Shown here piece by piece: positions 47,693 through 60,290 of a stretch of 64,000 bases of DNA; the first letter of the stretch is position 1; each line of letters opens with the position of its first letter. Position numbers and translations under genes: made by a program. The notes below the pieces were generated by a model. The model saw only the letters and a list, made by a program, of their open reading frames with translations. It had not been told where the DNA came from and did no database searches. Origin of the DNA: an uncultured Chloroflexia bacterium (GTDB lineage: Bacteria > Chloroflexota > Limnocylindria > Limnocylindrales > CSP1-4); the NCBI GenBank assembly GCA_963740825.1, contig CAVUFD010000002.1, forward strand, positions 968,944 through 1,032,943. The letters are read 5' to 3'.

Positions 47693-47878
47693 GCCTGCTC
47701 ACCTCTTCCGATGCTGTGCGGGAGCGATCCGTTGATCATCCGGGGTCGCACGGCCTCCGTGCAAGGCGACGAACGACGCAGGGCGCCGCCGCCAGTGGCG
47801 GGGATTGAACCTGCAGCCTCCTTGGACCACCTTTAGTCGGCGAAGCGCCCAACCAGGGCGTCGCAGACGAGGGGCCTG

Positions 47879-48430
47879 ATGCGGGCACCGCTGGTGGAGC
47901 GAGCGAGGCAGGGCGACGACGTCGCCTTCGGCGAGCTCGTCGACGCCGACGGGGACCGCTGCTTCGCGATCGCCTATCGGATCCTGCGCGATCACGAAGC
48001 CGCCCAGGACGCCGTGCAGCAGGCATTCCTGCTGGCGTGGCGGGACCTGCCCAAGCTGCGGGACGTCGAGCGCTACGACGTCTGGCTGCATCGCCTGCTC
48101 GTGAACGCATGCTACGAGGAATCCCGCCGCCAGCGACGGTGGACGAGCCGGATCAAGGTGCTGCCGGTCGACGGACCGGAGGTGCCAGATTCGACGGTCT
48201 CGGTCGACGACCGCGACCTCCTCGATCGCGCGTTCGCGCGACTCACTCCGCAGCACCGCGCGGTGTTCGTGCTCCACCACTACGCCGGGCTGCCGGTCGC
48301 CACGATCGCCCAGGTCGTCGGCGTCCCGGTCGGCACGGTCAAGTCCCGTCTTCACCACGCGACCCGCTCCCTGCGAGCGTCGGTCGCCGTCGATTCCATC
48401 CTCGACTCAGCGGAGATCCAGTCGGCATGA
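47879..48430 (+). CDS. ECF sigma factor (copy 1)
   Basis: GDDVAF, AQDAVQQAFL, WLHRLLVNAC, GTVKSRLHHA. Confidence 0.95.
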   Translation: MRAPLVERARQGDDVAFGELVDADGDRCFAIAYRILRDHEAAQDAVQQAFLLAWRDLPKLRDVERYDVWLHRLLVNACYEESRRQRRWTSRIKVLPVDGPEVPDSTVSVDDRDLLDRAFARLTPQHRAVFVLHHYAGLPVATIAQVVGVPVGTVKSRLHHATRSLRASVAVDSILDSAEIQSA

Positions 48431-49821
48431 GCGCGCCCCGTGATCCGGACGTCGTCCTGGCCGCATGGCTGGACGACGGCCCGGCGGAACTTCCGTCCTC
48501 GACGCGACGCGCGATCTCGACTGCCGTCCGGACGACACCCCAGGCGCGAGCCGGCTTCGGCTTGCCCGCGTGGAGGCCAACCCAGATGTCCCGATTCCTC
48601 ATGCTTGCCAGCGTCGCCGCGGTCATCGCGGTGGCCGTCGGCGTGTTCGCCAACGCCGCGCCGCGGCCCTCCGGCGTCATTGGCGTGCCCGCCGTGACGC
48701 CGGACACGGCGACACCCTCGCCGTCGCCGTTCATCAGCACGGCTGACTGGCTGCCGCTCTCGTCCACGCGGTACGGCTACGAGATCGCTTATCCGCCCAA
48801 TTGGACTGCCCGTCAGTCGGTCAGAGCCTGGTCCATCGACTACGACAAGAACGCCTGGAACAGCCCGGCGGCCGACCACCTCGACGGGGGGGATGTGCTC
48901 GTCACCGCGTTCGCGGCGGACATCCCGCCGGGGACATCCGCCGATGCGTGGATCTCGTCCTACCTCTCGCCGGAGCCCGTCGGCGAGGGATCGCCTTCGC
49001 CGTGCACCCACACGTCGATCACGCTTGCGACGACGCAGGTCGACGGGCATCCCGTCGCCTTCTGGCGGGAGGATGCAGCGGAGGGCTGCGCGGGCACCTT
49101 CGCCTTCGTTGTCGTTGACGGACGTATCCATGTCTTCAGCATCTGGCGGAGCGGTCGGGACGCGTTGCTCGAGGCCATGCTCTCGACGGTCACCTTCGGA
49201 ACGGGCGCGCTCGACACGTCCACCTGGACGACCTACAGCTCGGCCCGGTACACCTTCGGGAACGACCCAACGATCGGACACCCCGCGGACTGGGTCGTGC
49301 GCCCGAGCGACCACGACTGGACCTTCGATTCGGACGGACTCGATCCGGCGAGCACGGGTCTCGAGTCGTTCACCAACCCCGAGGACACCGTGCGCGTGAG
49401 TGCCTGGAACGTCCCGAGGGCTCCGTCCGAAGGAGAGATGTATGGCGCCACTGCGTCGGACGGATGGCGGAACGTCGAGCCGTGGGTCCAGTCGTACTGC
49501 GAGCGGACCGGCGACACACCCTGTACGGGCATCCACCAGCGAGCCGTGCCGCTGTGCCTCGAGAACAGGGATTGCCATCCGGGCCTCCTGGTGCCGTTCC
49601 AGAACGACGTCCAGGCGTTCTTCACGAACGGGGGTAAGGGCGCGCCGATGACGGTGGTGGCCGTCTGGCGGGGACCGACCGATCCGACCACGGCGCCGTA
49701 CGGCGGTTCGCGGCAGCTCCTCGAGGCCTTCCTGTCGACCATGGACGTGCAGGCCACCGAGGAGTCGCCCTTCCAGGAATCGCGCGACGCCGCCGCCAGC
49801 TTCGCGGCGAGCGCCCCCTAG
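48427..49821 (+). CDS. Membrane anti-sigma-like protein (copy 1) with duplicated extracytoplasmic module
   Basis: ATGA-coupled to sigma; AAWLDDGP, TM, PT linker; two W-x-x-x-SS-x-RY...P-x-x-W repeats. Confidence 0.75.
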   Translation: MSAPRDPDVVLAAWLDDGPAELPSSTRRAISTAVRTTPQARAGFGLPAWRPTQMSRFLMLASVAAVIAVAVGVFANAAPRPSGVIGVPAVTPDTATPSPSPFISTADWLPLSSTRYGYEIAYPPNWTARQSVRAWSIDYDKNAWNSPAADHLDGGDVLVTAFAADIPPGTSADAWISSYLSPEPVGEGSPSPCTHTSITLATTQVDGHPVAFWREDAAEGCAGTFAFVVVDGRIHVFSIWRSGRDALLEAMLSTVTFGTGALDTSTWTTYSSARYTFGNDPTIGHPADWVVRPSDHDWTFDSDGLDPASTGLESFTNPEDTVRVSAWNVPRAPSEGEMYGATASDGWRNVEPWVQSYCERTGDTPCTGIHQRAVPLCLENRDCHPGLLVPFQNDVQAFFTNGGKGAPMTVVAVWRGPTDPTTAPYGGSRQLLEAFLSTMDVQATEESPFQESRDAAASFAASAP

Positions 49822-49822
49822 C

Positions 49823-51046
49823 TCAGTCCGGGAACGCCTCCGGCCCGCGCTCGGACAGCTCGCGCGCGTGCGCCTCGGCGTCCTCGGGCGGCAGCCATGA
49901 ATAGGGGTAGTTCGGGTCGTCGAGGTCCATGGCCGCCTGCGTGACGTGCAGCGGGTGGAACGTGTCCACCATCACCGCGAGCTCCTCGGTCGCCTCCTTG
50001 CCTATCGATGCCTCGGCGGTGCCCGGGTGCGGGCCGTGCGGGATCCCGGCCGGGTGGAGGGTGAACGAGGCGATGTCGACCCCACGCCGGCTCATGAAGT
50101 TGCCGGCGACGTAGTAGATGACCTCGTCGCTGTTGATGTTCGAGTGGTTGTAGGGCGCCGGGATCGCGAGCGGGTGGTAGTCGAACTTGCGGGGCACGAA
50201 CGAGCACACGACGAAGTTCCGGGCCTGGAACGTCTGGTGGACGGGCGGGGGCTGGTGCACCCGGCCCGTGATCGGCTGGAAGTCCGCGATGTCGAACCGG
50301 AACGGCCACAGGTAGCCGTCCCAGCCGACGACGTCGAACGGGTGGTGCCGATAGTGGTAGGCCGTGATGCGGTCGCTCGAGCGGACGTCGATGACGTAGT
50401 CGCCGTGCTCGTCGAGCGGCTCGCGGAACTCGGGCGAGTGGAGGTCGCGCTGCCCGTACGGCGAGTGCTCCAGCAGCTGCCCATAGTCGTTGCGGTAGCG
50501 CTTGGGCGGCTCGATCTCGGAGGGCGCCTCGAGGTACAGGATCCGCTGGTCGGAGCCCGGGTCCGGATCCAGCCGCCACGTGGTGCCGATCGGCAGCACC
50601 AGGTAGTCGCCGGGGTGGTAGGCGAGGTCGCCGAAGACCGTCCGGCAGACACCCGTTCCTTCGTGGACGAACAGCATCTCGTCCGCGATCCCGTTGCGAT
50701 AGAAGCGGTTCTCGGGCATCGGCCCGGCCGGTCGGACGATCCCGAACACCACGTCGTGGTTGAAGTACAGCGGGACCCGGCCGGTGAGCACGTCGCCCTT
50801 CGGGGGGACGGCGCCGGTGTTCGTGAGGCGGTGGCGATGGAGGCCGTCGTCCGCCGCCTGGAGGTCGATCCGCGGGCCCGGTTCGAGGTGGTGCGTCCGC
50901 GTCGGCGGCGTCAGGTGGTAGAGGAGGGAGCTTCGCCCGGTGAACCCCTCGACCCCGAACAGCTCCTCCGCGTGCAGGCTCCCGTCGGCCGCCCGGTGCT
51001 GGGTGTGCCGCGTGGGCGGGATGGAGCCTCGCGAGACGTAGTACAT
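49823..51046 (-). CDS. hmgA: Homogentisate 1,2-dioxygenase
   Basis: EGF.G.SSLLYH, GWDG, HQPPPVH, PYNHSN.NSDE, HP.G.PHGP, VMVDT. Confidence 0.95.
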   Translation of the reverse strand: MYYVSRGSIPPTRHTQHRAADGSLHAEELFGVEGFTGRSSLLYHLTPPTRTHHLEPGPRIDLQAADDGLHRHRLTNTGAVPPKGDVLTGRVPLYFNHDVVFGIVRPAGPMPENRFYRNGIADEMLFVHEGTGVCRTVFGDLAYHPGDYLVLPIGTTWRLDPDPGSDQRILYLEAPSEIEPPKRYRNDYGQLLEHSPYGQRDLHSPEFREPLDEHGDYVIDVRSSDRITAYHYRHHPFDVVGWDGYLWPFRFDIADFQPITGRVHQPPPVHQTFQARNFVVCSFVPRKFDYHPLAIPAPYNHSNINSDEVIYYVAGNFMSRRGVDIASFTLHPAGIPHGPHPGTAEASIGKEATEELAVMVDTFHPLHVTQAAMDLDDPNYPYSWLPPEDAEAHARELSERGPEAFPD

Positions 51047-51050
51047 GCGC

Positions 51051-51081
51051 GACTGGCCTCCTCGGGGTGAGGAGGCCAGTC
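51051..51081. promoter_or_regulatory. 13-bp perfect hairpin covering the hmgA SD
   Basis: GACTGGCCTCCTC-ggggt-GAGGAGGCCAGTC; minus-strand GAGGAGG is 10 nt from ATG. Confidence 0.7.
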
Positions 51082-51091
51082 TACCGACGCG

Positions 51092-51801
51092 TTACGGCTG
51101 GCGGACGAACGGGCCGGACTTCTCGAAAACGACGCCCCTGACGAATGCCTCGACGGCGCTGGGTGCCGGCGACACCGCGTGGACCGTGAACTCCGCCGAG
51201 CCAGGTTCGCCCCGACCGACGTCGAACTCGATCCTGCCGTTCGACCACCGCGCGTAGATCCGCCGGCCGTCGACCGGATCGATTGTCCATGTCTCCGGGC
51301 TGAACGCCTCATCGACGCCGGTGCTCACGATCCACTGATTCCCGCGGACCTCCATCTTCGTTCGGAACGTGTGCCGCCGCGGATGCCCAGGATCGTGTCG
51401 ATGATGGCGTCCCTCTCGCTCTGGGCGAGGGTCGGGTCGTCCGCGAGGCGAGCGAGGATGCCTGCCACCGGCTGCGGCGTCCCCAGGTACACGCCATCGG
51501 GGATGATCTGGCTCGGTGCGGGTGTCGGCGGCGGCGCCCCCGCGACCCGGCTGTCCGTCCGGGACGCGATGAGCAGCCCGCCGACGGTGGCGGCCACGAC
51601 GATCGCGGTGGCCGCCCCGAACAGGGCGATGCGATTCATGGTCTGAAACCTCCGGGGCACGCGCGAGGCGCGCCGCTGTAGGATCGAGGGGAACGCCGCC
51701 AGCACGGTGCTGAGCACCGGCGACGGGGCGATGTCGGGATCGGCCTCGAGCCAGTCCGCGACGCTGGGCTCGAAGTCGGGGTCAGTCGGGTATCGGCTCA
51801 T
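51092..51801 (-). pseudogene. Anti-sigma-like protein (copy 2) with apparent 1-nt deletion near 51369
   Basis: MSRYPTDPDF...WLEADP...TM; continues in the frame of ORF 51092-51355 (FRTKMEVRGNQW). Confidence 0.7.
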
Positions 51802-52365
51802 GCCGGTCGCTCCTCGGACGTCGCGAGCGAGCGTCCGTCGTGGTCGAGCACGGCCCGCAGCTGACGGACCGCGTAGTGGAGTCGGGACCGCGCGGTCCCT
51901 TCGGGGATGCCCAGGGTCACCGCGATCTCCGTGAGCGGATACCCCAGGTGGTGGTGCAGGACGACGACCGCCCGCTGCTCCGGTGTCAGCCGGCGGAAGG
52001 CGCCTTCGAGCTCGTCCCGGGCGGCGACGGAGCGCGCCACGTCCGGTTCGAGCGAGGTGTCGGTGGGGATGACCCGGATGCGCGCGACCCACCGCCGTTC
52101 GGTGCGGGCCTCTGCGTAACACGCATTGACGACCAGGCGGTGCAGCCAGGCGGTGCAGCCAGGCGTCGAAGCGCTCGGGGTCGCGCAGCGTCGGGAGGTC
52201 GCGCCAGGCGCCGAGCAGCGCCTGCTGCGAGGCATCCTGGGCGCGATGCGGGTCGCGCAGGATCCGGTACGCGAGCCGGTAGCAGCCGTCGACGGACTCG
52301 GCCGCCAAGGCCGCGAAGGCCTCCTGGTCGCCGCCCATCGCCCGCTCCACCAGCCCCACTCGCAT
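51798..52365 (-). pseudogene. ECF sigma factor (copy 2) frameshifted by a 13-bp tandem duplication
   Basis: GDQEAF...FDAWLHRL in one frame, VVNACY...GTARSRLHYA in another. Confidence 0.9.
52133..52165. repeat. 13-bp tandem duplication, CCAGGCGGTGCAG x2 + CCAGGCG
   Basis: Read directly from the sequence. Confidence 0.95.
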
Positions 52366-52435
52366 CGGGATCCTCGGGTGTCGCGCGACCCTCCGGCCGC
52401 GTCACCGAGTATGGAGCCGGCTCGGGCAGATTCGT

Positions 52436-53554
52436 TCAGCCCCTGACGTCGGCACCCCGGTCGAGCCGGATCCGGACCCTGACCGTCCGATCGGCGCGAA
52501 CGGTCACGTCCGCGCGACCCACGACGACCCAGCCTGCATCGCGGGGCAGCGGTGCCTCGATCACCATCGTGTGCTCGCCGACCTGGCACGGGACCTGGAA
52601 CCGGCCGTCGTCGCCCACGCCGTAGCCCATGTCGCCACCGCCGCAGGAGCCCGGGCCATCGCTGCGGCCATCGACCATCAGGTTGTTGTAGCCGGGCGCC
52701 GATCCGTCGGCGAGCGTGACGATTCCCCGGACGGTGCCGAACGGCAGCAGGGCGGCCCCGGTGCCGTCCGACACGACCTCGAGCATCTCGGGCGCGATGC
52801 CCAGCGCCTTGACGTAGTGGTCGACGATGTGGCGCGGCGCATCCGGGTTGGCGCTCGAGATCTCGACCTCGACCACGTTGCGGACGATGTCCACGCCGAC
52901 CCCTTCGCCCTTCGCGTCGAGCTCCGCGAACCAGCTCCAGTCGATCTGATCCTGCACCGCCCGCAGCTCGCGCTCCGACCACCGGACCTGGCGGGCGACG
53001 ATCGGCTTGGCGACGGCGCCGACCTCGTTGAGCGCGGCGAGATGGCCCTCCGGGTCGGCGGTCCAGAGGGTGACGACGACGTGGTTCGGCTGGTCGGTGT
53101 ACACGCCGCCGAACTGGTCTACGTGCGACGCCGCGTACCGCCGGACGAATTCGACGGCAGCCTCGTAGGCGTGCTGGCGGCTGCCGAACTCGGCCTCTTC
53201 TTCCGGAAGCATGGGGACGTCCAGCGCCTCCATCCGGGCGCGCGGATCGGCGGCAACCTGCTCCACCCAGGCGAGGTCGGAGCGCAGGCCGAAGAGCTGC
53301 CGCTGGCGCATGGCGTATTCGATGTCCGCGGGCAGCCCCGACGGGATCGGCTCGAGCGATGCCGCTGGATCCGGGGCCTCGGATGGCGATGGCACCGCCG
53401 GCGATGCCGTCGCTGCCTCGAGCGAGGTTGGTGCCACCGACATCGGCGAACCCGGCGACGCCGCGCGGCTGCAGCCGATCAGGGCGATGCCGGTCGCGAC
53501 GAACAGCGGGACGGTCATGCCGACCCGTCGCCTCGAGCTGACGCGATCGTTCAT
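52436..53554 (-). CDS. Lipoprotein, paralog 1 (protease-prodomain-like region + beta-sandwich)
   Basis: ALIGC lipobox; GLRSDLAWV, FGGVY, GVGVDIVRNVVEVEISSANP. Confidence 0.75.
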   Translation of the reverse strand: MNDRVSSRRRVGMTVPLFVATGIALIGCSRAASPGSPMSVAPTSLEAATASPAVPSPSEAPDPAASLEPIPSGLPADIEYAMRQRQLFGLRSDLAWVEQVAADPRARMEALDVPMLPEEEAEFGSRQHAYEAAVEFVRRYAASHVDQFGGVYTDQPNHVVVTLWTADPEGHLAALNEVGAVAKPIVARQVRWSERELRAVQDQIDWSWFAELDAKGEGVGVDIVRNVVEVEISSANPDAPRHIVDHYVKALGIAPEMLEVVSDGTGAALLPFGTVRGIVTLADGSAPGYNNLMVDGRSDGPGSCGGGDMGYGVGDDGRFQVPCQVGEHTMVIEAPLPRDAGWVVVGRADVTVRADRTVRVRIRLDRGADVRG

Positions 53555-53557
53555 TGT

Positions 53558-54712
53558 CTAGCCCTTGATGTCCGCGCCCGGAACGAGTCGGATCCGGAGA
53601 TTGGTCGTCTCGTCGGCGCGGACCGTGAATGTGGCCTCGCCGACGGTCACCATCTCCTCGGGCCGCAGGTAGTAGATGTTGTCGAAGCGAGCATCCGGAC
53701 CCGGCGCCCGCAGGCTGATCGTCCAGTCGCCGCGCGTGCAGAGCAGGGTCAGGTGGCCGGTGCGGGCGACTCCGGGGCCCGAGATCCCGGGCGGGACGCA
53801 CGCGCCGGCGTGCTCGGGCGTTGTCTGGACGAGCTGGTCGTTCGGACCCGGACGTTTCCCATCGGCAGTGACGACGGTGGCCTCGAGGGTGCCGCTCGAC
53901 ATGAGCGCGACGCCGGTTCCATCCGATTCGACCTCGATCATCTCGGGTGGAATCCCGAGCTCCTTGGCGTAGTGATCGGCGATGAGGCGCGGCGCCTTGG
54001 GGTTGGCGCTCGAGATCTCGACCTCGACCACATTTCCCTCGATGTGGGCGCCCACGCCCTGGGGATCAGCGTCGATCCGCTTGAACCAGTCCCAGCTGCG
54101 ACTGATCTTCCTCTTGACCGCGTTGAGCTCGGTGAGCGACCAGCGGACCGGCAACGCGACGATCGGCGCGTCCTGGCCGGCGATGTCGAGCATCGCGGCG
54201 AGATGAGCGTCGACGTTCCGCGTCCAGAGCGTGGCGATTCGGTCGTTCAGGTTGTCGAGATAGAGCCCGCCGAACTCGGCCTCGTGGTCTGAGGCGTAGC
54301 GATTCACGAGGCCGACAAATGGCTGGACTCCAGACTGGCGGGCCAGCATCGACGCCTCCTCGGACGGGACCATCGGAAATCCCCAGTAGCGCTGGGATGT
54401 GGGATCGGCGTCGACCTGGAGGATCCACTCCACGTCCGCCCGGAGGCCCATCTGTCGTCGCTCGACGATGGCGTTGGCGACCCAGTCCGGCACGGCCGAT
54501 GGCATGGGTTCGGGCGTTGGCGATGCCTCGGCCAATGGCGCGGCCGCGACGACCGACGGCGATGGCGCAGCCTCGATGGTCGGCACGTGCGATGCAAGCG
54601 CCGCTCCGGTCGCGATGGCGGAGGCGTCGGGCTGGCTGCAGCCCGCGACGAGCACGATGGTCGCGAGCCAGCCGCCGAGCGCCAATCGACCGAGGAGCGA
54701 TCGAGACCTCAT
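53558..54712 (-). CDS. Lipoprotein, paralog 2
   Basis: LVAGC lipobox; GLRADVEWI, FGGLY, GVGAHIEGNVVEVEISSANP. Confidence 0.75.
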   Translation of the reverse strand: MRSRSLLGRLALGGWLATIVLVAGCSQPDASAIATGAALASHVPTIEAAPSPSVVAAAPLAEASPTPEPMPSAVPDWVANAIVERRQMGLRADVEWILQVDADPTSQRYWGFPMVPSEEASMLARQSGVQPFVGLVNRYASDHEAEFGGLYLDNLNDRIATLWTRNVDAHLAAMLDIAGQDAPIVALPVRWSLTELNAVKRKISRSWDWFKRIDADPQGVGAHIEGNVVEVEISSANPKAPRLIADHYAKELGIPPEMIEVESDGTGVALMSSGTLEATVVTADGKRPGPNDQLVQTTPEHAGACVPPGISGPGVARTGHLTLLCTRGDWTISLRAPGPDARFDNIYYLRPEEMVTVGEATFTVRADETTNLRIRLVPGADIKG

Positions 54713-54775
54713 CGCCGGGACCCTCCGAGCGGACGTTCCCGGCTACGACCCGCGAGGGGACCCGTGCGTGACGCG

Positions 54776-55429
54776 TCAGGCCGGTTGGGAAGTTCCTGCG
54801 GAGGCCGGATCGTCGAAGTCGAGGCGGACGAGGAGTCGCGGCAGGCCGGCGCTGCGGGCCGCCGTCTCGAGGACGCGGTGGAAGCCCGCCTGGTCGAACA
54901 TCGAGGCGATGCCGACGAACGCGAAGCCGACGTCGACGCGCCCGCCGGCCGGATCGATCGGGTACGCCTCGACGCCGGGCGCACCGGCCTCGCGGGCGGC
55001 CTGGACCACGTGCTCGAGCAGCGCCCGCGCGACGCCCCGCCGACGGTAGCCGACGCGGATCCGGAAGCAGCCGATCGCCCACACCGGCTCGTCGTCGATC
55101 GAGGGGATCGTCCTCGACCGGACGAGCCGCGGCGCCTCCGTGCGGACAACGACCCCGCACCAGCCGACCGGCTCGTCGCCGAGATAGGCGAGGAACCCGG
55201 GCGGCACGTCGAGCTCGAGCTGCGCCCGGAGCGCGGCCGGGCGGCTCCCGGGTGCCGCGGTGCCGTATCCGCTGGCCTGGCCTCGCCAGGGCTGGCACCA
55301 GCAACCCTTGTCGTCATCGCCCCCGAGGATCAGCGCGATGTCGTCCCAGCGATCGGCGGTGGCAGGAACGATAACCAGGTCGGCGGCGATGGATCGACCC
55401 TCGGACGCCTGTCGGCCCGTCGTGCTCAC
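54776..55429 (-). CDS. GNAT acetyltransferase
   Basis: CWC, VGWC, YRRRGVARALL, VEAYP, FDQAGF; GTGA-coupled to fahA. Confidence 0.85.
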   Translation of the reverse strand: MSTTGRQASEGRSIAADLVIVPATADRWDDIALILGGDDDKGCWCQPWRGQASGYGTAAPGSRPAALRAQLELDVPPGFLAYLGDEPVGWCGVVVRTEAPRLVRSRTIPSIDDEPVWAIGCFRIRVGYRRRGVARALLEHVVQAAREAGAPGVEAYPIDPAGGRVDVGFAFVGIASMFDQAGFHRVLETAARSAGLPRLLVRLDFDDPASAGTSQPA

Positions 55430-56451
55430 GACGGTCGCGCCACCACCGGCGTCACGAGCCGCCCCAGCCGCTCGATCTCCAGCACGACCTCGTCGCCCGG
55501 CTCCAGGTAGCGGCCGAGGGTCTCCTCCCGGATCTCGAGCAGGCAGCCGCCGCCGACGGTCCCGCTGCCGAGGATCTCGCCCGGACGCAGGTGCACGTCG
55601 GCCGAGGCCCGCGCCACCATCTGCCCGAACGCGTAGTGCGCGCTGGACCAGGTCCCGCTGGTGGTCTCGACCGACCGGCCATCGTGCGTCCGGACCGTCG
55701 CCACCATCGCGAGGTCCGGTCCCGTCGCGCCCGGAGACCGCCGGTCCGCGAGCTCGTCCGGCGTGACCAGCCACGGCCCGATGGAGACCCCGAAGTCCTT
55801 GCCCTTGGCCGGCCCGAGGCGGAGCACGCTCTCGTCGCGCTGGAGGTCGCGCGCGGACCAGTCGTTCAGCACGAAGTAGCCGCCGATCGCGTCCTCGCCG
55901 CGCTCCTCGGCGAGATCGATCGCCGGGGTGTCGATCAAGGCCCCGACCTCCAGCTCGTAGTCGAGCTCGGACGACTCGCGCGGCGCCCAGATGGGATCGC
56001 CGGCCCCGCGGAGCTCGGCCACGTTGGAGAAGTAGAAGATCGGCAGGCGGTACCACGCCTCGGGGATCGTCTGGTCGCGTCGCTCCCACATCGTGCGGAC
56101 GTGTCGCTCGAACGCGTAGAAGTCGCGGAACGATGGCGGGCGGAGGATCGGGGGGCCGAAGGCCAGGTCGGCGGCGTCGAAGACGGCGTCGTCGCCGTCG
56201 CGCGGGACGAAAGGCTCGACGAGGTCCGCCAGGCCGGCGATGCGCAGGCCGTTGCCGAGGTGGTCGTCGAGCGTGGTCACCGGCCGGCGGTGCAGGGCGC
56301 TGTCGTGGGCGAGGTTCGAGTTCGCGGCGATGGCGCGCCGGCGAGCGACCTCGAGGTCGACCCAGCGCAGGCCGCCGGAATCGAGCGCCGCCGCCAGGCG
56401 CCAGTCGGCCCCTGCGGCGGCATGTCGTTCCCGGACGTGGGCGAGACGCAT
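55426..56451 (-). CDS. fahA: Fumarylacetoacetate hydrolase family protein (probable fumarylacetoacetase)
   Basis: RDFYAFERH, PIFYFSN, LDYELE, NDWSARD.Q, KGKDF, GSGT; lies between hppD and hmgA. Confidence 0.8.
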   Translation of the reverse strand: MRLAHVRERHAAAGADWRLAAALDSGGLRWVDLEVARRRAIAANSNLAHDSALHRRPVTTLDDHLGNGLRIAGLADLVEPFVPRDGDDAVFDAADLAFGPPILRPPSFRDFYAFERHVRTMWERRDQTIPEAWYRLPIFYFSNVAELRGAGDPIWAPRESSELDYELEVGALIDTPAIDLAEERGEDAIGGYFVLNDWSARDLQRDESVLRLGPAKGKDFGVSIGPWLVTPDELADRRSPGATGPDLAMVATVRTHDGRSVETTSGTWSSAHYAFGQMVARASADVHLRPGEILGSGTVGGGCLLEIREETLGRYLEPGDEVVLEIERLGRLVTPVVARPS

Positions 56452-56542
56452 CGCCCGAGTCTAGCGAAGGATGCGGCGGGCCCGGATCGTCTCCGTCAGG
56501 TTCGCGATCCAGCCAGGCCCGCCGCGAGGAGCGGGATGTTGG

Positions 56543-57439
56543 CTACTTGATCACCTTGCCTTCGGCGTCGACCACGTACCACTTGCCACCGAGGCCCTGG
56601 CCCTTGGTGTCGCCCGCGGCGGTGTCGCCGGCGAAGTAGTAGAGCGGCTGGCCATAGAAGGTGACCTGCTTGGCCTGGTTGTCGTCGCGCGTGATCGCGG
56701 CGAAGTCCTCGGCGTCGAGGCCGGTCCCGAGGGTGGGCGCGCCGTCGGAGGTGAGCGCCGGCCAGTTGGCCAGGCAGTCGCCCGTGCAGTTGGACTTGCC
56801 ACCGGAGTCAGCCGAGAACGCGTAGAGCGTCAGGCCCTTGTCGCCCCCGACGAGGATCTTGCCCAGCGGGTTGTCCGCGAGGTCGACCTGCACGCCGCCC
56901 GCCGCCGCCGACGGCTCGGCGCTGGCCGCCGGGGACGCTTCTGCGCCGATCATGTTGCCGTCGGCACCGACCACGAACCACTTGCCGCCGACGCCCTGGC
57001 CGTTCGTCTGGTTCGGCGCGGTGTCCTTGGCGAAGTAGTACACGGGGTGGCCGTAGAAGGCGATCTGCATGGTGCCGTCGTCGCGAGTGATCAGGGTGAA
57101 GTCTTCGGCGTCGAGGCCAGTGCCCAGGGTCGGCGCGGCGTCCGAGGTCAGCGGCGGCCAGTTGGTGGCGCAGTCGTCGTTGCAGACCGACTTGCCGGCG
57201 GCGGCTGCGTCTGGCGTGAAGACATACAGGGTCTTCCCGGTGCCGTCCGCGAGGACCTTGCCGAGCGTCGAGTCCGCGAGGTTGATGGTGACGCCGCCGG
57301 CGGCGGCCGACGGGCTCGCTGCGGCGGGTGTCGGCGCCTGTGCGCTCGGCGCGGCGGTGCCGCCGGTCGTCGAGGCTGAGCAGGCCGCGAGGACCATGCC
57401 CAGGGCAAAGAGCGGCGCGGCCGCTCGGATGGTTCGCAT
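56543..57439 (-). CDS. COG4315 lipoprotein with secreted Y-X4-D repeats (two modules)
   Basis: LAAC lipobox; TLYVFTPD...C...C...NWP, YYFAKD, GQGVGGKW, all duplicated. Confidence 0.9.
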   Translation of the reverse strand: MRTIRAAAPLFALGMVLAACSASTTGGTAAPSAQAPTPAAASPSAAAGGVTINLADSTLGKVLADGTGKTLYVFTPDAAAAGKSVCNDDCATNWPPLTSDAAPTLGTGLDAEDFTLITRDDGTMQIAFYGHPVYYFAKDTAPNQTNGQGVGGKWFVVGADGNMIGAEASPAASAEPSAAAGGVQVDLADNPLGKILVGGDKGLTLYAFSADSGGKSNCTGDCLANWPALTSDGAPTLGTGLDAEDFAAITRDDNQAKQVTFYGQPLYYFAGDTAAGDTKGQGLGGKWYVVDAEGKVIK

Positions 57440-57483
57440 CGTGAGGGTCTCCTGTCCGTATGTGGCTCGGTGACAGGGACCTC

Positions 57484-57509
57484 TACGCCGAGGGTCTTGC
57501 GCCGGTTTC
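57484..57509 (-). promoter_or_regulatory. ECF-type promoter candidate for the COG4315 gene
   Basis: GAAACC-N16-CGTA on minus strand. Confidence 0.5.
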
Positions 57510-57512
57510 GGC

Positions 57513-57977
57513 CTAGCCGGGCTTGACGGCCATCAGCCAGATCAGGATCAGCAGGCCGGAGCCGCCGATCAGCGCGAGCGCCTCCGGGCGCCGGTTGTCG
57601 AGCCGGGCGACGAGCTCCGCATCATCGAGCCGCGGGGTCTTCTCGGTGCCGTCGAGCCCGTCACGGAGCGTGTAGTAGAAGCCGGCGCCGACGATGTACA
57701 TGAGCAGGATCACGACGACGATGACGACGTACGAGGCGACGACCCAGGGCGCCGTCAGCCAGCCGACCGACGCGGCCGCCCCCAGGCCACCGATCCCGAG
57801 CAGGAGGAACCCGAGGTACATCAGCTGGTTCCCGCGCGACGACAGGCCGAGGAGCGCCGCGACCACGCCGCGGTCGGGCTCGCCGCGGATCCGGAACGAG
57901 ACCCACATCGAGACGCCATGCGCCACCAGGAACAGGGCAAAGCCGACCAGGTGCAGTGCCACCAGCCACGAGTACAT
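57513..57977 (-). CDS. DUF2269-like 4-TM membrane protein
   Basis: WLVALHLV, four TM, WLMAVKP end. Confidence 0.75.
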   Translation of the reverse strand: MYSWLVALHLVGFALFLVAHGVSMWVSFRIRGEPDRGVVAALLGLSSRGNQLMYLGFLLLGIGGLGAAASVGWLTAPWVVASYVVIVVVILLMYIVGAGFYYTLRDGLDGTEKTPRLDDAELVARLDNRRPEALALIGGSGLLILIWLMAVKPG

Positions 57978-58117
57978 CGGCGTCCTCCGGTGCAGGGCTC
58001 GACACGCCCAGTTTGGCGGGTGACGGAACCTCTCGCGCCTTCAAATGAACGCTCCTCGCGACGAGGTGACCAGTAGAGTTGGACGGCGCCCCCGCTCGGC
58101 GCACCAGAGGCCGAGCA

Positions 58118-58672
58118 GTGGATCGCGATCTCGTCGAGGCGGCCCAACGCGGCGACAGGGAGGCATTCGTCGACCTGGTTCGTCCGCGCGCCGACCACCT
58201 CTACGCGGTCGCACAGCGGATCCTCCGCGACGTCGATCGGGCCGAGGATGCTGCACAGGACGCGCTGGTGATCGCCTGGCGTGACCTGCGGGCACTCCGC
58301 GATCCGGACCAATTCGACGCGTGGCTGCAGAAGGTCCTGATCAACGTCTGCATCCGACACGCGGGCCGGGAACGGCGTCGCTTGGCGAACCTCCGAGCGC
58401 TGCCGATCGACGGACCGGTGGCGCCCGACCCGGACATCATCACGATCGCCGATCGGGATCAGCTCGAGCGTGGGTTCCGCCGGCTATCGGCCGATCAACG
58501 GGTCGTCCTCACCCTGCACCATTTCGCGGGCTATGCCCCGGGCGAGATCGCCGAGATCCTCGGTGTCCCGCCGGGGACGGTCCGCTCGCGACTTCACAAC
58601 GCCCATCGCGCCCTGCGGGCCGCCCTCGAGGCGGACGCGCGCGCCCAGGTCCTCGGAGGTCGTCCGGCATGA
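58118..58672 (+). CDS. ECF sigma factor (copy 3)
   Basis: GDREAF, AEDAAQDAL, WLQKVLINVC, GTVRSRLHNA. Confidence 0.95.
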   Translation: MDRDLVEAAQRGDREAFVDLVRPRADHLYAVAQRILRDVDRAEDAAQDALVIAWRDLRALRDPDQFDAWLQKVLINVCIRHAGRERRRLANLRALPIDGPVAPDPDIITIADRDQLERGFRRLSADQRVVLTLHHFAGYAPGEIAEILGVPPGTVRSRLHNAHRALRAALEADARAQVLGGRPA

Positions 58673-59541
58673 CTCGCGAGCGGGACATCGAGCGCCTCCT
58701 CGACGCCTGGTTCGCCGATGGCCCGGCGCAGCTCGCCGACCACGTCTTCGATGAGGCCGTCGGGCGCGTCCACCGCCAACGCCAGCGACCCGCGTGGCGC
58801 TTCCTGTGGAAGGAGCTCCATGTGACCACCCAGCTCAAGGTCGCGCTCGGCGCGGCCGCCGTCATCGTCGTCTTCGTCGCGGGCTTCGCCATGCTCGGGC
58901 CCGGTGGCCGGATCGGTGGGGTCGACCTCCCGACCGCGTCTCCAGCGCCATCGCCGTCGCGGACCCCATCGCCGCCGCCGCTGCCCGACGGGCGCCTGAA
59001 CGCCGGTGACTACGCCCTGCGTGCGCTGCCGGACGACCCCATGGCCTTCACCATCACGGCCCCCGGCGGCTGGACGGGCTACGGCGGGTTCTTCATCGGT
59101 GGCCCCAGCCTGTCGGATGCCCCGAGCGGGATCGGGATCTCCGTCAACCACGACCCGCAGGTGGTCACCGACCCGTGCGACTCATCCGTGCACACGCCTT
59201 CCCCTGCGTCGAGCGTGCCGTCCATCGACGACCTGGTCGCGGCGATCTCCGCCCGCGGGGACATCGAGGTCTCCGGGGTGACGGACGCCGAGCTCGCCGG
59301 CTACTCAGGCAAGCGCTTCGATGTGCAGTTCCCGGCGGAGCTGGCGTGCGCCAAACACTACCTGTTCGCGGAGCCGAAGGGCCTGTACGCGAACGGCCCG
59401 GCGAACCATTGGCGGGTCTGGCTGGTCGACGTCGACGGTGAGACAGCTGTCGTCGTGCTCCTCGATTACGCGGGAACGCCGACGGCGGACCGCGACTCGG
59501 CGCAGGCGGCGATCAATTCGATCCGGATCACGCGCCAGTAG
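58669..59541 (+). CDS. Membrane anti-sigma-like protein (copy 3)
   Basis: ATGA-coupled to sigma; DAWFADGP, TM, PT linker, extracytoplasmic domain. Confidence 0.75.
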   Translation: MTRERDIERLLDAWFADGPAQLADHVFDEAVGRVHRQRQRPAWRFLWKELHVTTQLKVALGAAAVIVVFVAGFAMLGPGGRIGGVDLPTASPAPSPSRTPSPPPLPDGRLNAGDYALRALPDDPMAFTITAPGGWTGYGGFFIGGPSLSDAPSGIGISVNHDPQVVTDPCDSSVHTPSPASSVPSIDDLVAAISARGDIEVSGVTDAELAGYSGKRFDVQFPAELACAKHYLFAEPKGLYANGPANHWRVWLVDVDGETAVVVLLDYAGTPTADRDSAQAAINSIRITRQ

Positions 59542-59781: not shown

Positions 59782-60099
59782 ATGGCCAGGCGGAACGGCA
59801 CCGGGATCGCGCTGCTCGCCGACGAGACCAGGCGACGAATCGTCGCGCTGCTCGCCGCGCAGCCGCGCCGGTCGTCGGCGATTGCGGCGGAGCTCGGGTT
59901 GAGCCGCCCAGCGACGAGCCGCCAGCTCCGGCTCCTCGAGGAAGCCGGACTGATCTGGGCGTTTCGGTCGCGCCTTGACGGTCGCGGCATCGTCTACCGC
60001 ATCAACCCGTCGGCGCACGGCCGGATCATCGCGTGGCTCGCCGGCACCGAGGTCGGGCTGCCGGGATCGGGTCAGTCCAGCCGAAGTCGTTCCGCTTGA
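59782..60099 (+). CDS. ArsR/SmtB-family HTH regulator
   Basis: LLADETRRRIVALL, SRPATSRQLRLLEEAGLI. Confidence 0.85.
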   Translation: MARRNGTGIALLADETRRRIVALLAAQPRRSSAIAAELGLSRPATSRQLRLLEEAGLIWAFRSRLDGRGIVYRINPSAHGRIIAWLAGTEVGLPGSGQSSRSRSA

Positions 60100-60290
60100 T
60101 TGCCAACGTCGTTCCGCGTGCTTGGAACGACCGCGATCCTGCACTTGCTCGCCCTGCGGACGCGCCGTCGCCCACGGGCACCCGTGGTCGTTCCGCGTGA
60201 TTGGAACGACCGCGATGCTGCACTTGCTGGCCCTGCGGACGCGCCGTCGCCCACCGGCACCCAAGGTCGTTCCGCGTGATTGGAACGACC
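60086..60290. repeat. 79-bp-period tandem repeat with a palindromic head (REP/operator-like)
   Basis: GTCGTTCCGCGTG(A/C)TTGGAACGACC at 60108, 60187, 60266; degenerate copy at 60086; units differ at 6 of 79 positions. Confidence 0.9.

Follow-up and report, generated by a model that had tools for sequence, protein, structure and literature searches.

A conserved Shine-Dalgarno sequence and start codon inside presumed anti-sigma factor genes of Chloroflexota: a candidate second translation start ahead of the membrane anchor

INTRODUCTION

Pairs of extracytoplasmic function (ECF) sigma and anti-sigma factors are the textbook example of a one-sensor, one-regulator switch, and they are in wide use as orthogonal parts in synthetic biology. 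A stretch of DNA from an uncultured Chloroflexia bacterium (assembly GCA_963740825.1, contig CAVUFD010000002.1, positions 968,944 to 1,032,943; 64,000 nucleotides with a G+C content of 72%, hereafter the window) raises the question of whether a single gene of such a pair may specify two sensor forms. Three ECF sigma genes, paralogous to one another, lie in the window; behind each comes the gene of a single-pass membrane protein that is presumed to be the anti-sigma factor, and inside each of these downstream genes a Shine-Dalgarno (SD) core and an in-frame start codon stand just ahead of the transmembrane helix. Do they mark a second translation start, or do they merely reflect the peptide that is encoded there? 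As described below, comparison of 78 homologous genes indicates that the SD core and the start codon are under nucleotide-level selection across a large family, and the internal translation start is probably functional. What the resulting short protein would do is considerably less certain.

INTERNAL SITES IN THE WINDOW

The open reading frames (ORFs) and internal sites at issue are the following.

48427..49821, plus strand: copy 1 long ORF, 464 residues; two-helix N-terminal head, linker, one transmembrane helix, two PsbP-like ectodomains
48572..48576, plus strand: copy 1 internal SD core GGAGG, written by the codons TGG AGG (W-R)
48586..49821, plus strand: copy 1 short ORF, 411 residues, from the in-frame ATG at 48586 (codon 54), 9 nt after GGAGG
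51325..51801, minus strand: copy 2 long ORF, from ATG 51801, 158 residues and then a stop; the ectodomain seems to be resumed in another frame at 51355-51092
51637..51653, minus strand: copy 2 internal site; GGAGG 51653-51649 (CGG AGG), 9 nt, ATG 51639-51637 (codon 55)
58669..59541, plus strand: copy 3 long ORF, 290 residues; N-terminal helical head, transmembrane helix, one PsbP/DcrB/LpqN-like ectodomain
58810..58824, plus strand: copy 3 internal site; AAGGAG 58810-58815 (AAG GAG), 6 nt, GTG 58822-58824 (codon 52)

The transmembrane helix begins 3 codons past the internal ATG in copy 1 (48595-48654) and spans residues 54-75 in copy 3 (58828-58893), and in copies 1, 2, and 3 alike the ATG of the downstream gene overlaps the sigma stop codon as ATGA. 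A first-pass annotation, made from the letters of the window, had placed the three internal sites correctly, had noted the ATGA coupling of the full-length starts, and had called the AGG arginine codon unusual at this G+C content; AGG indeed makes up 4.0% of the arginine codons in the window's confidently coding ORFs. Its statement that all three genes carry the site holds for the presence of SD and start but is overstated, given that copy 2 is frameshifted and copy 3 combines a GTG start with a competing out-of-frame ATG. That ATG belongs to an ATGTGA (58820-58825) in which it is followed immediately by TGA; the element overlaps the GTG, lies 4 nt from the SD, is missing from the closest homologue (L023), and might divert or recycle initiating ribosomes.

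The strict form of the pattern, GGAGG or AGGAG located 3-12 nt before an in-frame ATG, occurs three times in the 10,377 other coding codons of the window, which amounts to a chance of about 0.5% for any given stretch of 19 codons. Against this background, even two strict matches in corresponding places of the paralogues are unlikely. The same internal arrangement as in copy 2 is found in its homologue L025, and relatives of copy 3 carry AAGGAG-N6-ATG (L023) or GGAGG-N9-GTG (L024).

SELECTION ON THE INTERNAL SHINE-DALGARNO SEQUENCE

Homologues were sought with a profile of the three N-terminal regions, whose first matches were frameshift-ridden metagenome proteins with a Met before the transmembrane helix. 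A scan of one genome per species gave 22 loci, all from Chloroflexota, the named ones being metagenome-assembled genomes (MAGs) of Ca. Limnocylindrales; a scan of Joint Genome Institute (JGI) metagenomes added 49 loci, and protein-based look-ups added 12, with L081 and L083 representing Illumina-type or JGI assemblies and more distant subfamilies. Five loci with Val in place of the internal Met were chosen deliberately from protein sequence, before their DNA had been seen; having been picked in this way, they are fit for a test of GTG usage and unfit for frequency estimates. Duplicates, truncated contigs, and a remnant pseudogene lineage (L017, L060-67) were dropped, and 78 genes were kept. 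The resampling described below ran on the first 69 unique genes, to which nine were added afterwards.

An SD core and an in-frame start codon are present at the cytoplasm/membrane boundary in 69 of the 78 genes. The core is GGAGG in 58 of these 69, and the gap to the start codon measures 9 nt in 46 genes and 6-7 nt in 14, with a full range of 3-12 nt. This spacing agrees with that of the main starts, which read GGAGG-N9-10-ATG or use weaker purine runs inside the 3′ end of the sigma gene.

Such a recurrent site might be put down to chance, or to codon context around a conserved peptide motif, with no function at the RNA level: a W-R dipeptide yields GGAGG whenever its Arg is AGG, and a basic residue before a transmembrane helix is expected from the positive-inside rule. 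The first-pass annotation had argued for an RNA-level signal on the grounds that the encoded peptides (WRPTQM, RRFQTM, and WKELHV) differ. They in fact conform to one motif, [W/R]-[R/K]-x3-[M/V], so that this argument falls; its conclusion survives on different evidence, namely codon choice. When synonymous codons were redrawn with every protein sequence held fixed, the loose pattern (SD core plus ATG or GTG, codons 44-62), observed in 59 of 69 genes, was expected in 9.0 +/- 2.6, and the strict pattern, observed in 52, was expected in 4.3 +/- 1.8. The highest counts reached in 1000 trials were 18 (loose) and 10 (strict). This comparison, which follows the homologue alignment and synonymous shuffling that had been proposed as a check, thus finds the SD enriched as anticipated. 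Applied to other 19-codon windows of the same genes, the detector fires in 4.6% (loose) and 0.3% (strict).

The choice of arginine codon shows the RNA-level signal directly. Within the W-R motif, AGG encodes the Arg of 51 of 51 sequences, as opposed to 6 of 39 W-R dipeptides elsewhere in the same genes (Fisher P 8e-19), and AGG generally accounts for about 4-7% of Arg codons. When the first 27 genes are aligned by codon, the motif Arg is AGG in 25 of 25 sequences, while four other conserved Arg columns contain AGG in 0 of 86. Codons beside the motif Arg vary freely, the preceding Pro, for example, being CCC, CCA, or CCG, and eight genes carry an additional W-R, located a few codons ahead of the motif, that is spelled with CGC while the W-R at initiation distance uses AGG. 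With the resampled counts never approaching the observed one, the reading as chance or codon context is close to refuted.

Neither does a recent common origin appear to account for the pattern. Clustering the genes at 70% amino acid identity across their first 80 residues gives 30 clusters, of which 25 carry the site (binomial P 5e-18). Codon identity at identical residues is 0.40 between clusters, so synonymous sites are scrambled. This scrambling bears directly on the idea that the site is a leftover of a fusion between a small sigma-binding ORF and a secreted or anchored PsbP-like gene, recognizable but unused. The architecture is certainly modular, in that the same head is found on at least nine ectodomain groups distinct by BLAST and Actinobacterial homologues of the ectodomain bear a different N-terminus. 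An unused SD, however, would decay at scrambled synonymous sites, and the invariant AGG and the breadth of clusters that keep the site speak against such decay; we regard a fossil of this kind as highly improbable. Because head and site together are joined to so many ectodomain groups, unconnected by BLAST, the role of the site seems to be tied to the signalling architecture and not to the chemistry of one ectodomain.

The SD core is moreover written in many ways. It is encoded by TGG AGG (W-R), by CGG AGG and AGG AGG (R-R), by AGG AGA, by TGG AAG GAG (W-K-E), by CGA GGG AGA (R-G-R), and by CGA AGG GAG, at least seven coding contexts in all. A pause caused by the rarity of AGG was considered and rejected, since in some variants frequent codons, AAG GAG for instance, preserve the SD; with at least seven contexts writing the SD, a rare-codon effect of AGG as such is ruled out. 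On the strength of these comparisons it is the SD itself that is conserved, and not one codon or one residue.

CONSTRAINT ON THE START CODON AND NATURAL LOSSES

The second half of the site is constrained as well. The internal start codon of the 69 site-bearing genes is ATG in 59, GTG in nine, and TTG in one. Wherever Val takes the place of Met its codon is GTG (9 of 9), though GTG makes up 30-37% of Val codons, and the single Leu is encoded by TTG, though TTG makes up 1.8% of Leu codons. These replacements indicate that a start codon is conserved, and not merely Met. Taken with the resampling, the AGG usage, and the cluster counts, they show SD and start codon kept beyond what the protein requires.

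Natural losses are of two kinds. In L055 the codons CGA and CTC replace AGG and ATG, and in L050 AAT and TCG do so, so that SD and start are lost jointly; the subfamily L062/L066/L068/L070 plus L074 likewise has neither, and its Arg codons there are CGN. Single losses are seen in L059, which lacks only the SD, and in L038, which lacks only the ATG.

These patterns also bear on the main rival to an internal start, according to which the SD-like sequence serves as an elongation pause before the transmembrane helix, which would delay the ribosome long enough for targeting to the membrane or for nascent sigma factor to be bound by the head. The motif does stand just upstream of the helix, and SD-like motifs early in membrane-protein genes or before transmembrane segments have been proposed to cause pauses in Escherichia coli, with the pause lying 8-11 nt past the motif (Fluman et al., 2014; PMC4359368). 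The resemblance to those cases extends to an SD-like motif in the coding region shortly before the helix. It ends at the start codon, which here is co-conserved at initiation distance and in which Met is replaced only by start-competent codons. A pause needs no start codon, yet 69 of the 78 genes have one, and both this constraint and the joint losses in L050 and L055 are left unexplained. Furthermore, most SD-linked pauses are said to have been traced by Mohammad et al., writing in Cell Rep in 2016, to an artefact of the ribosome profiling method, which counts against pausing here. Altogether, we consider the pause improbable.

STRENGTH OF THE SITE AND ITS mRNA CONTEXT

If ribosomes are to initiate inside the gene, the site should be comparable to the ones they normally use. 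The predicted duplex with the anti-SD sequence has a median energy of -10.5 kcal/mol at internal sites, -9.3 kcal/mol at main starts, and -2.9 kcal/mol at background codon positions, 0.8% of which reach the internal-site median; these energies were computed with a generic anti-SD sequence. By the same measure the internal site is the stronger one in 38 of 57 genes, and in copy 1 the predicted values are -9.3 kcal/mol (internal) and -6.6 kcal/mol (main start). The stretch from SD to start is predicted to be more unpaired than the remaining local mRNA in 50 of 62 genes. As such, the internal site looks like the lineage's normal ribosome-binding sites, being as strong or stronger. RNAalifold found no conserved pairs around the internal site in 18 diverse sequences, and the whole window contains no match to an Rfam family.

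The promoter-like elements and sigma genes ahead of the three downstream genes are arranged as follows.

47806..47838, plus strand: ECF-type promoter-like element of operon 1; -35 TGAACC 47806-47811, -10-like GACCACCTTTAGTC 47825-47838
47879..48430, plus strand: ECF sigma gene copy 1, 183 residues; Pfam Sigma70_r2 and Sigma70_r4_2
52407..52438, minus strand: ECF-type promoter-like element of operon 2; TGAACG 52438-52433, -10-like CTCCATACTC 52416-52407
51798..52365, minus strand: ECF sigma gene copy 2, frameshifted; 13-bp tandem duplication 52133-52158
58046..58079, plus strand: ECF-type promoter-like element of operon 3; TGAACG 58046-58051, -10-like GTGACCAGTAGAGT 58066-58079
58118..58672, plus strand: ECF sigma gene copy 3; Pfam Sigma70_r2, Sigma70_r4_2, and Sigma70_ECF

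Of 50 homologous loci, 42 have a putative promoter of the form TGAACC-N~17-CCATCTxTA at the same place ahead of the sigma gene. An internal promoter that would give a separate short transcript was considered and rejected, as only 3 of the 50 loci contain the family's ECF-type motif within the operon, and no sigma-70-like promoter was found within 47700-49900. Because the motif sits upstream and rarely inside the operon, the short product would come from the same mRNA as the long one. The paralogues share a nearly identical promoter-like motif, which makes cross-talk among their sigma factors possible.

The promoter-like element is followed in the 5′ untranslated region by a conserved GC hairpin (GAAGCGCCC-loop-GGGCGC), the two together occupying 47806-47865, 52438-52380 (minus strand), and 58046-58110 in the window. 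Element and hairpin recur about 40-60 nt upstream of the sigma starts in loci L001-L074, and some compensatory changes are seen in the stem (GCACCC/GGGTGC in L005, GCGCCG/CGGCGC in L007).

THE SIGMA GENES AND THE PRESUMED ANTI-SIGMA FACTOR

The assignment of the upstream genes to the ECF class is straightforward. Copies 1 and 3 contain only the sigma-2 and sigma-4 regions and have the length of about 180-200 residues typical of the class, and they score 72.7 and 71.7, respectively, against NCBIfam TIGR02937 (sigma70-ECF; cut-off 42.9). For copy 3, the position of the promoter-like element implies a sigma gene start at GTG 58118 and not at TTG 58079. The sigma gene of copy 2 is homologous, with tblastn returning two high-scoring segment pairs in different frames. 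Its damage is a perfect 13-bp tandem duplication (CCAGGCGGTGCAG x2) at 52133-52158, a 13-nt insertion relative to L025, and the downstream ORF differs from L025 by several 1-nt indels plus one of 10 nt; the copy 2 pair is a probable pseudogene or long-read assembly indel product.

The downstream protein is more difficult to name. Its context is that of an anti-sigma factor: translational coupling to an ECF sigma gene, with the ATG lying directly on the sigma stop codon as ATGA in the three window copies and in 28 of 29 individually checked family genes (the exception is the remnant L017), an N-in single-pass topology, and a variable sensor domain. The N-terminal head, by contrast, gave no Pfam match in searches with the full proteins and 22 N-terminal domains, the NCBIfam 'antisigma' model scored 13.9 against a cut-off of 100, and a profile search of the head against PDB sequences returned nothing relevant; a recognizable anti-sigma domain, whether class I (zf-HC2/RsrA-like) or of another described class, was not found. 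Since the context fits and yet the sequence belongs to no described anti-sigma domain family, the protein is here called a presumed anti-sigma factor. By the same gene context, the N-terminal 50 or so residues are presumed to be the sigma-binding part.

PREDICTED PRODUCTS OF THE LONG AND SHORT READING FRAMES

Structure prediction gives a consistent picture of the long form. The AlphaFold2 (AF2) model of copy 1, built like that of copy 3 on a deep alignment (pLDDT 85.6), shows helices at residues 7-17 and 24-36, a disordered stretch at 40-55 that holds W-R-x3-M, a transmembrane helix at 57-76, and, beyond a low-confidence linker, two alpha/beta domains (109-265 and 266-464). That of copy 3 (pLDDT 85.6) has helices at 4-17, 19-36, and 43-48, the transmembrane helix at 54-75, and one domain. 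The predicted topology has one transmembrane helix with the N-terminus inside, an Arg-rich stretch on its N-terminal side, and the folded domains after a Pro/Ser/Gly linker. Foldseek searches of the PDB matched the copy 1 ectodomain to the PsbP protein CyanoP (2lnj, E 1.5e-4, TMt 0.54) and that of copy 3 to Apa, PsbP, DcrB, and LpqN (E 2e-4 to 1e-3, TMt up to 0.57), so that both appear to adopt the PsbP/Mog1/DcrB/LpqN/Apa fold, an alpha/beta sandwich, with TMt of about 0.5-0.59. At the sequence level neither ectodomain has a Pfam match.

The short form would begin with M-(N/S/T)-x1-4-(R/K), followed by 19-24 hydrophobic residues and a linker of Pro/Arg and then Gly/Pro/Ser. Its n-region carries a net charge of +1 in 56 of 59 genes; in a further gene the charge is +2. 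A cleaved signal peptide was considered and judged less likely, in view of the length of the hydrophobic run and the absence of an A-x-A-type site; with these signal-anchor features, the short form is more likely to be anchored than secreted, and of the surface or secreted protein suggested at first, the secreted option is not favoured.

Could the short frame be the only real one? If so, the upstream 50 codons would either encode a small peptide of their own or have been attached to the gene through misannotation of its 5′ end. Gene callers do disagree on the start of family genes: the source record calls copy 1 at 411 residues, from the internal ATG, whereas JGI gives close homologues 464 residues, and in several database entries the protein begins with the internal Met, so that public databases mix long and short versions of the family. 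The internal SD is also usually the stronger of the two. The reading fails, however, on the upstream part, which is conserved as a protein with free synonymous variation (W14 is invariant, and L15, G18, P19, P23, Q39, and R41 are kept in at least 90%), is separated from the rest by no stop codon and stays in frame in 78 of 78 genes, and, wherever the upstream sequence is available and with the remnant L017 as the exception, starts with an ATG that overlaps the sigma stop. A gene with the internal start alone is accordingly very improbable, slightly more so than the fusion remnant.

The breadth of the family lends weight to these observations. A profile search of 1.84 billion representative proteins retrieved 3,147 clusters at E<=1e-3 and 359 at E<=1e-10. 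Among 132 new top representatives (50%-identity clusters with a transmembrane helix), 115 carry [WR][RK]x1-4M before the helix and eight carry V instead of M, 123 in sum, and six have the M without the basic pair. Relatives of the copy 3 type likewise carry M or V before the helix.

One lineage might at first sight seem to have split the gene naturally. In L017 and L060-L067, on CSP1-4-type Chloroflexi contigs, the N-terminal head is kept without a start codon, a sigma gene, or a transmembrane helix, and it runs into a frame-shifted serine-hydrolase-like ORF, identically in seven independent assemblies. The idea of a natural split gene was rejected and the loci were excluded, as they represent a start-less remnant fused to another frame.

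A MODEL OF TWO PRODUCTS AND ITS STANDING

The arrangement that these data suggest is that each gene would be a two-product gene. The long product would start at the ATGA-overlapping ATG and comprise the cytoplasmic two-helix head, one transmembrane helix, and the PsbP-like ectodomain. A second, independent initiation site, consisting of a strong SD core and ATG, GTG, or TTG, would lie in the disordered linker, 1-8 codons before the helix. Ribosomes that initiate there would make a short product with a cytoplasmic stub of 2-8 residues and a charge of +1, the same membrane anchor, and the same ectodomain. Such a form would presumably be unable to hold the sigma factor. Because it would share the ectodomain while not holding sigma, it would compete with the long form as a decoy, titrating ligand, partner, or site-1 protease, or mixing into oligomers, and would thereby set the threshold or feedback of the ECF switch. 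The 1:1 ratio of sigma factor to long form in the first-pass annotation is conjectural.

Confidence declines along this chain. A functional internal translation start is, as stated at the outset, probable. Granted that start, regulatory competition is the role favoured for the short form, though with modest weight and somewhat less than even odds; the ectodomain may instead act in the envelope on its own account as the 'output', and the sequence is compatible alike with a decoy, a threshold setter, or an output. The complete scheme, in which a sigma-blind sensor copy made from its own ribosome-binding site sets the ECF threshold or feedback through its ratio to the long form, is on balance unlikely.

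Several considerations weigh against internal initiation or against the role drawn from it. The case for initiation at the internal site is an evolutionary one, and ribosomes arriving from the upstream start could occlude the internal SD. The complete site is wanting in nine of the 78 genes; since the long ORF is intact in every one of the nine, the long product can stand alone, and the site appears to be dispensable in some lineages. The peptide motif W-R-x3-M is itself conserved, and conservation of the Met by itself could be a protein-level effect. Within the window, copy 2 is broken and copy 3 starts with GTG while an out-of-frame ATG-TGA lies nearer to the SD. Long-read assemblies that contain indel errors are the source of many MAG loci, although the 49 JGI contigs show the same pattern. 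Finally, the head matches no known anti-sigma domain, so that a 'sigma-blind' short form is an assumption.

RELATION TO KNOWN SYSTEMS

The gene pairs described here resemble those of single-pass transmembrane anti-sigma factors, of the RseA, RsiW, and RskA types and of the short class II type such as CnrY, in many respects: the gene is coupled downstream of an ECF sigma gene, and the protein has an N-in head, one transmembrane helix, and an extracytoplasmic sensor. A GAAC-type promoter ahead of the operon is common to ECF anti-sigma systems and, putatively, to the operons studied here. Unlike in those types, the head, whose two helices comprise about 36 structured residues, has no sequence match among described anti-sigma domains.

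The closest parallel in architecture is PBP1b (MrcB) of Salmonella and E. coli, in which an in-frame internal start also lies just before a single transmembrane anchor. In E. coli, PBP1b occurs in alpha and gamma forms, the short form lacking about 42-45 cytoplasmic residues. PBP1b is an enzyme whose two forms are equal in activity, whereas the short form here would lose the head that is presumed to regulate by binding sigma, which would set the two forms apart in signalling; the site here, moreover, is known from evolutionary conservation and not from protein data. The short form of MrcB has been described as lacking about 42 cytoplasmic N-terminal residues while keeping the anchor and the extracytoplasmic part, and in-frame internal starts that give two proteins, of which the short often modulates the long, are also known for ClpB, IF2, CheA-S, and SsaQ/SpaO (PMC11005335). 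Anti-sigma factors are absent from this list, as are starts at the cytoplasm/membrane boundary of a single-pass sensor.

Alternative starts are not foreign to the ECF module either. Sigma isoforms from alternative starts are found for SigE of Mycobacterium tuberculosis and SigR of Streptomyces coelicolor, where N-terminal extensions affect stability; it is the sigma factor that varies there, and not the anti-sigma factor. A search of the literature turned up no report of anti-sigma isoforms from internal or alternative starts, in line with the first-pass annotation, which knew of no such description for ECF systems. Thus, while internal in-frame starts are already known, a conserved one in a presumed ECF anti-sigma gene is, as far as searched, new to the literature.

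If the two-product model is true, a conserved head-less second product would be a regulatory component missing from present models and annotations of ECF switches: the anti-sigma factor would be controlled at the level of its proteoforms, a mode of control conserved across thousands of gene clusters from soil Chloroflexota. The stoichiometry of the sensor forms would become testable as a tuner of the ECF response. The family also offers an unusually clean sequence-only case for a functional internal start, complete with natural loss variants, and the mixture of long and short versions in databases matters for the annotation of Chloroflexota MAGs.

NEIGHBOURING FEATURES

Three further features of the surroundings merit mention. 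Between copies 1 and 2 lies a gene on the minus strand (49823-51046) that is, by eye, putatively of the homogentisate-dioxygenase type; its start, GAGGAGG-N10-ATG, is an example of the lineage's normal SD use. Glyoxalase-family genes adjoin the homologous operons in L023, L078, and L083. Downstream of copy 3, a 79-bp tandem repeat (60103-60290; 2.4 copies with 91% matches), each unit of which holds the palindrome GTCGTTCCGCGTGATTGGAACGAC, follows just after a small ORF (about 59783-60099) for a putative helix-turn-helix protein, ArsR-like by eye, and the repeats may be operator sites.

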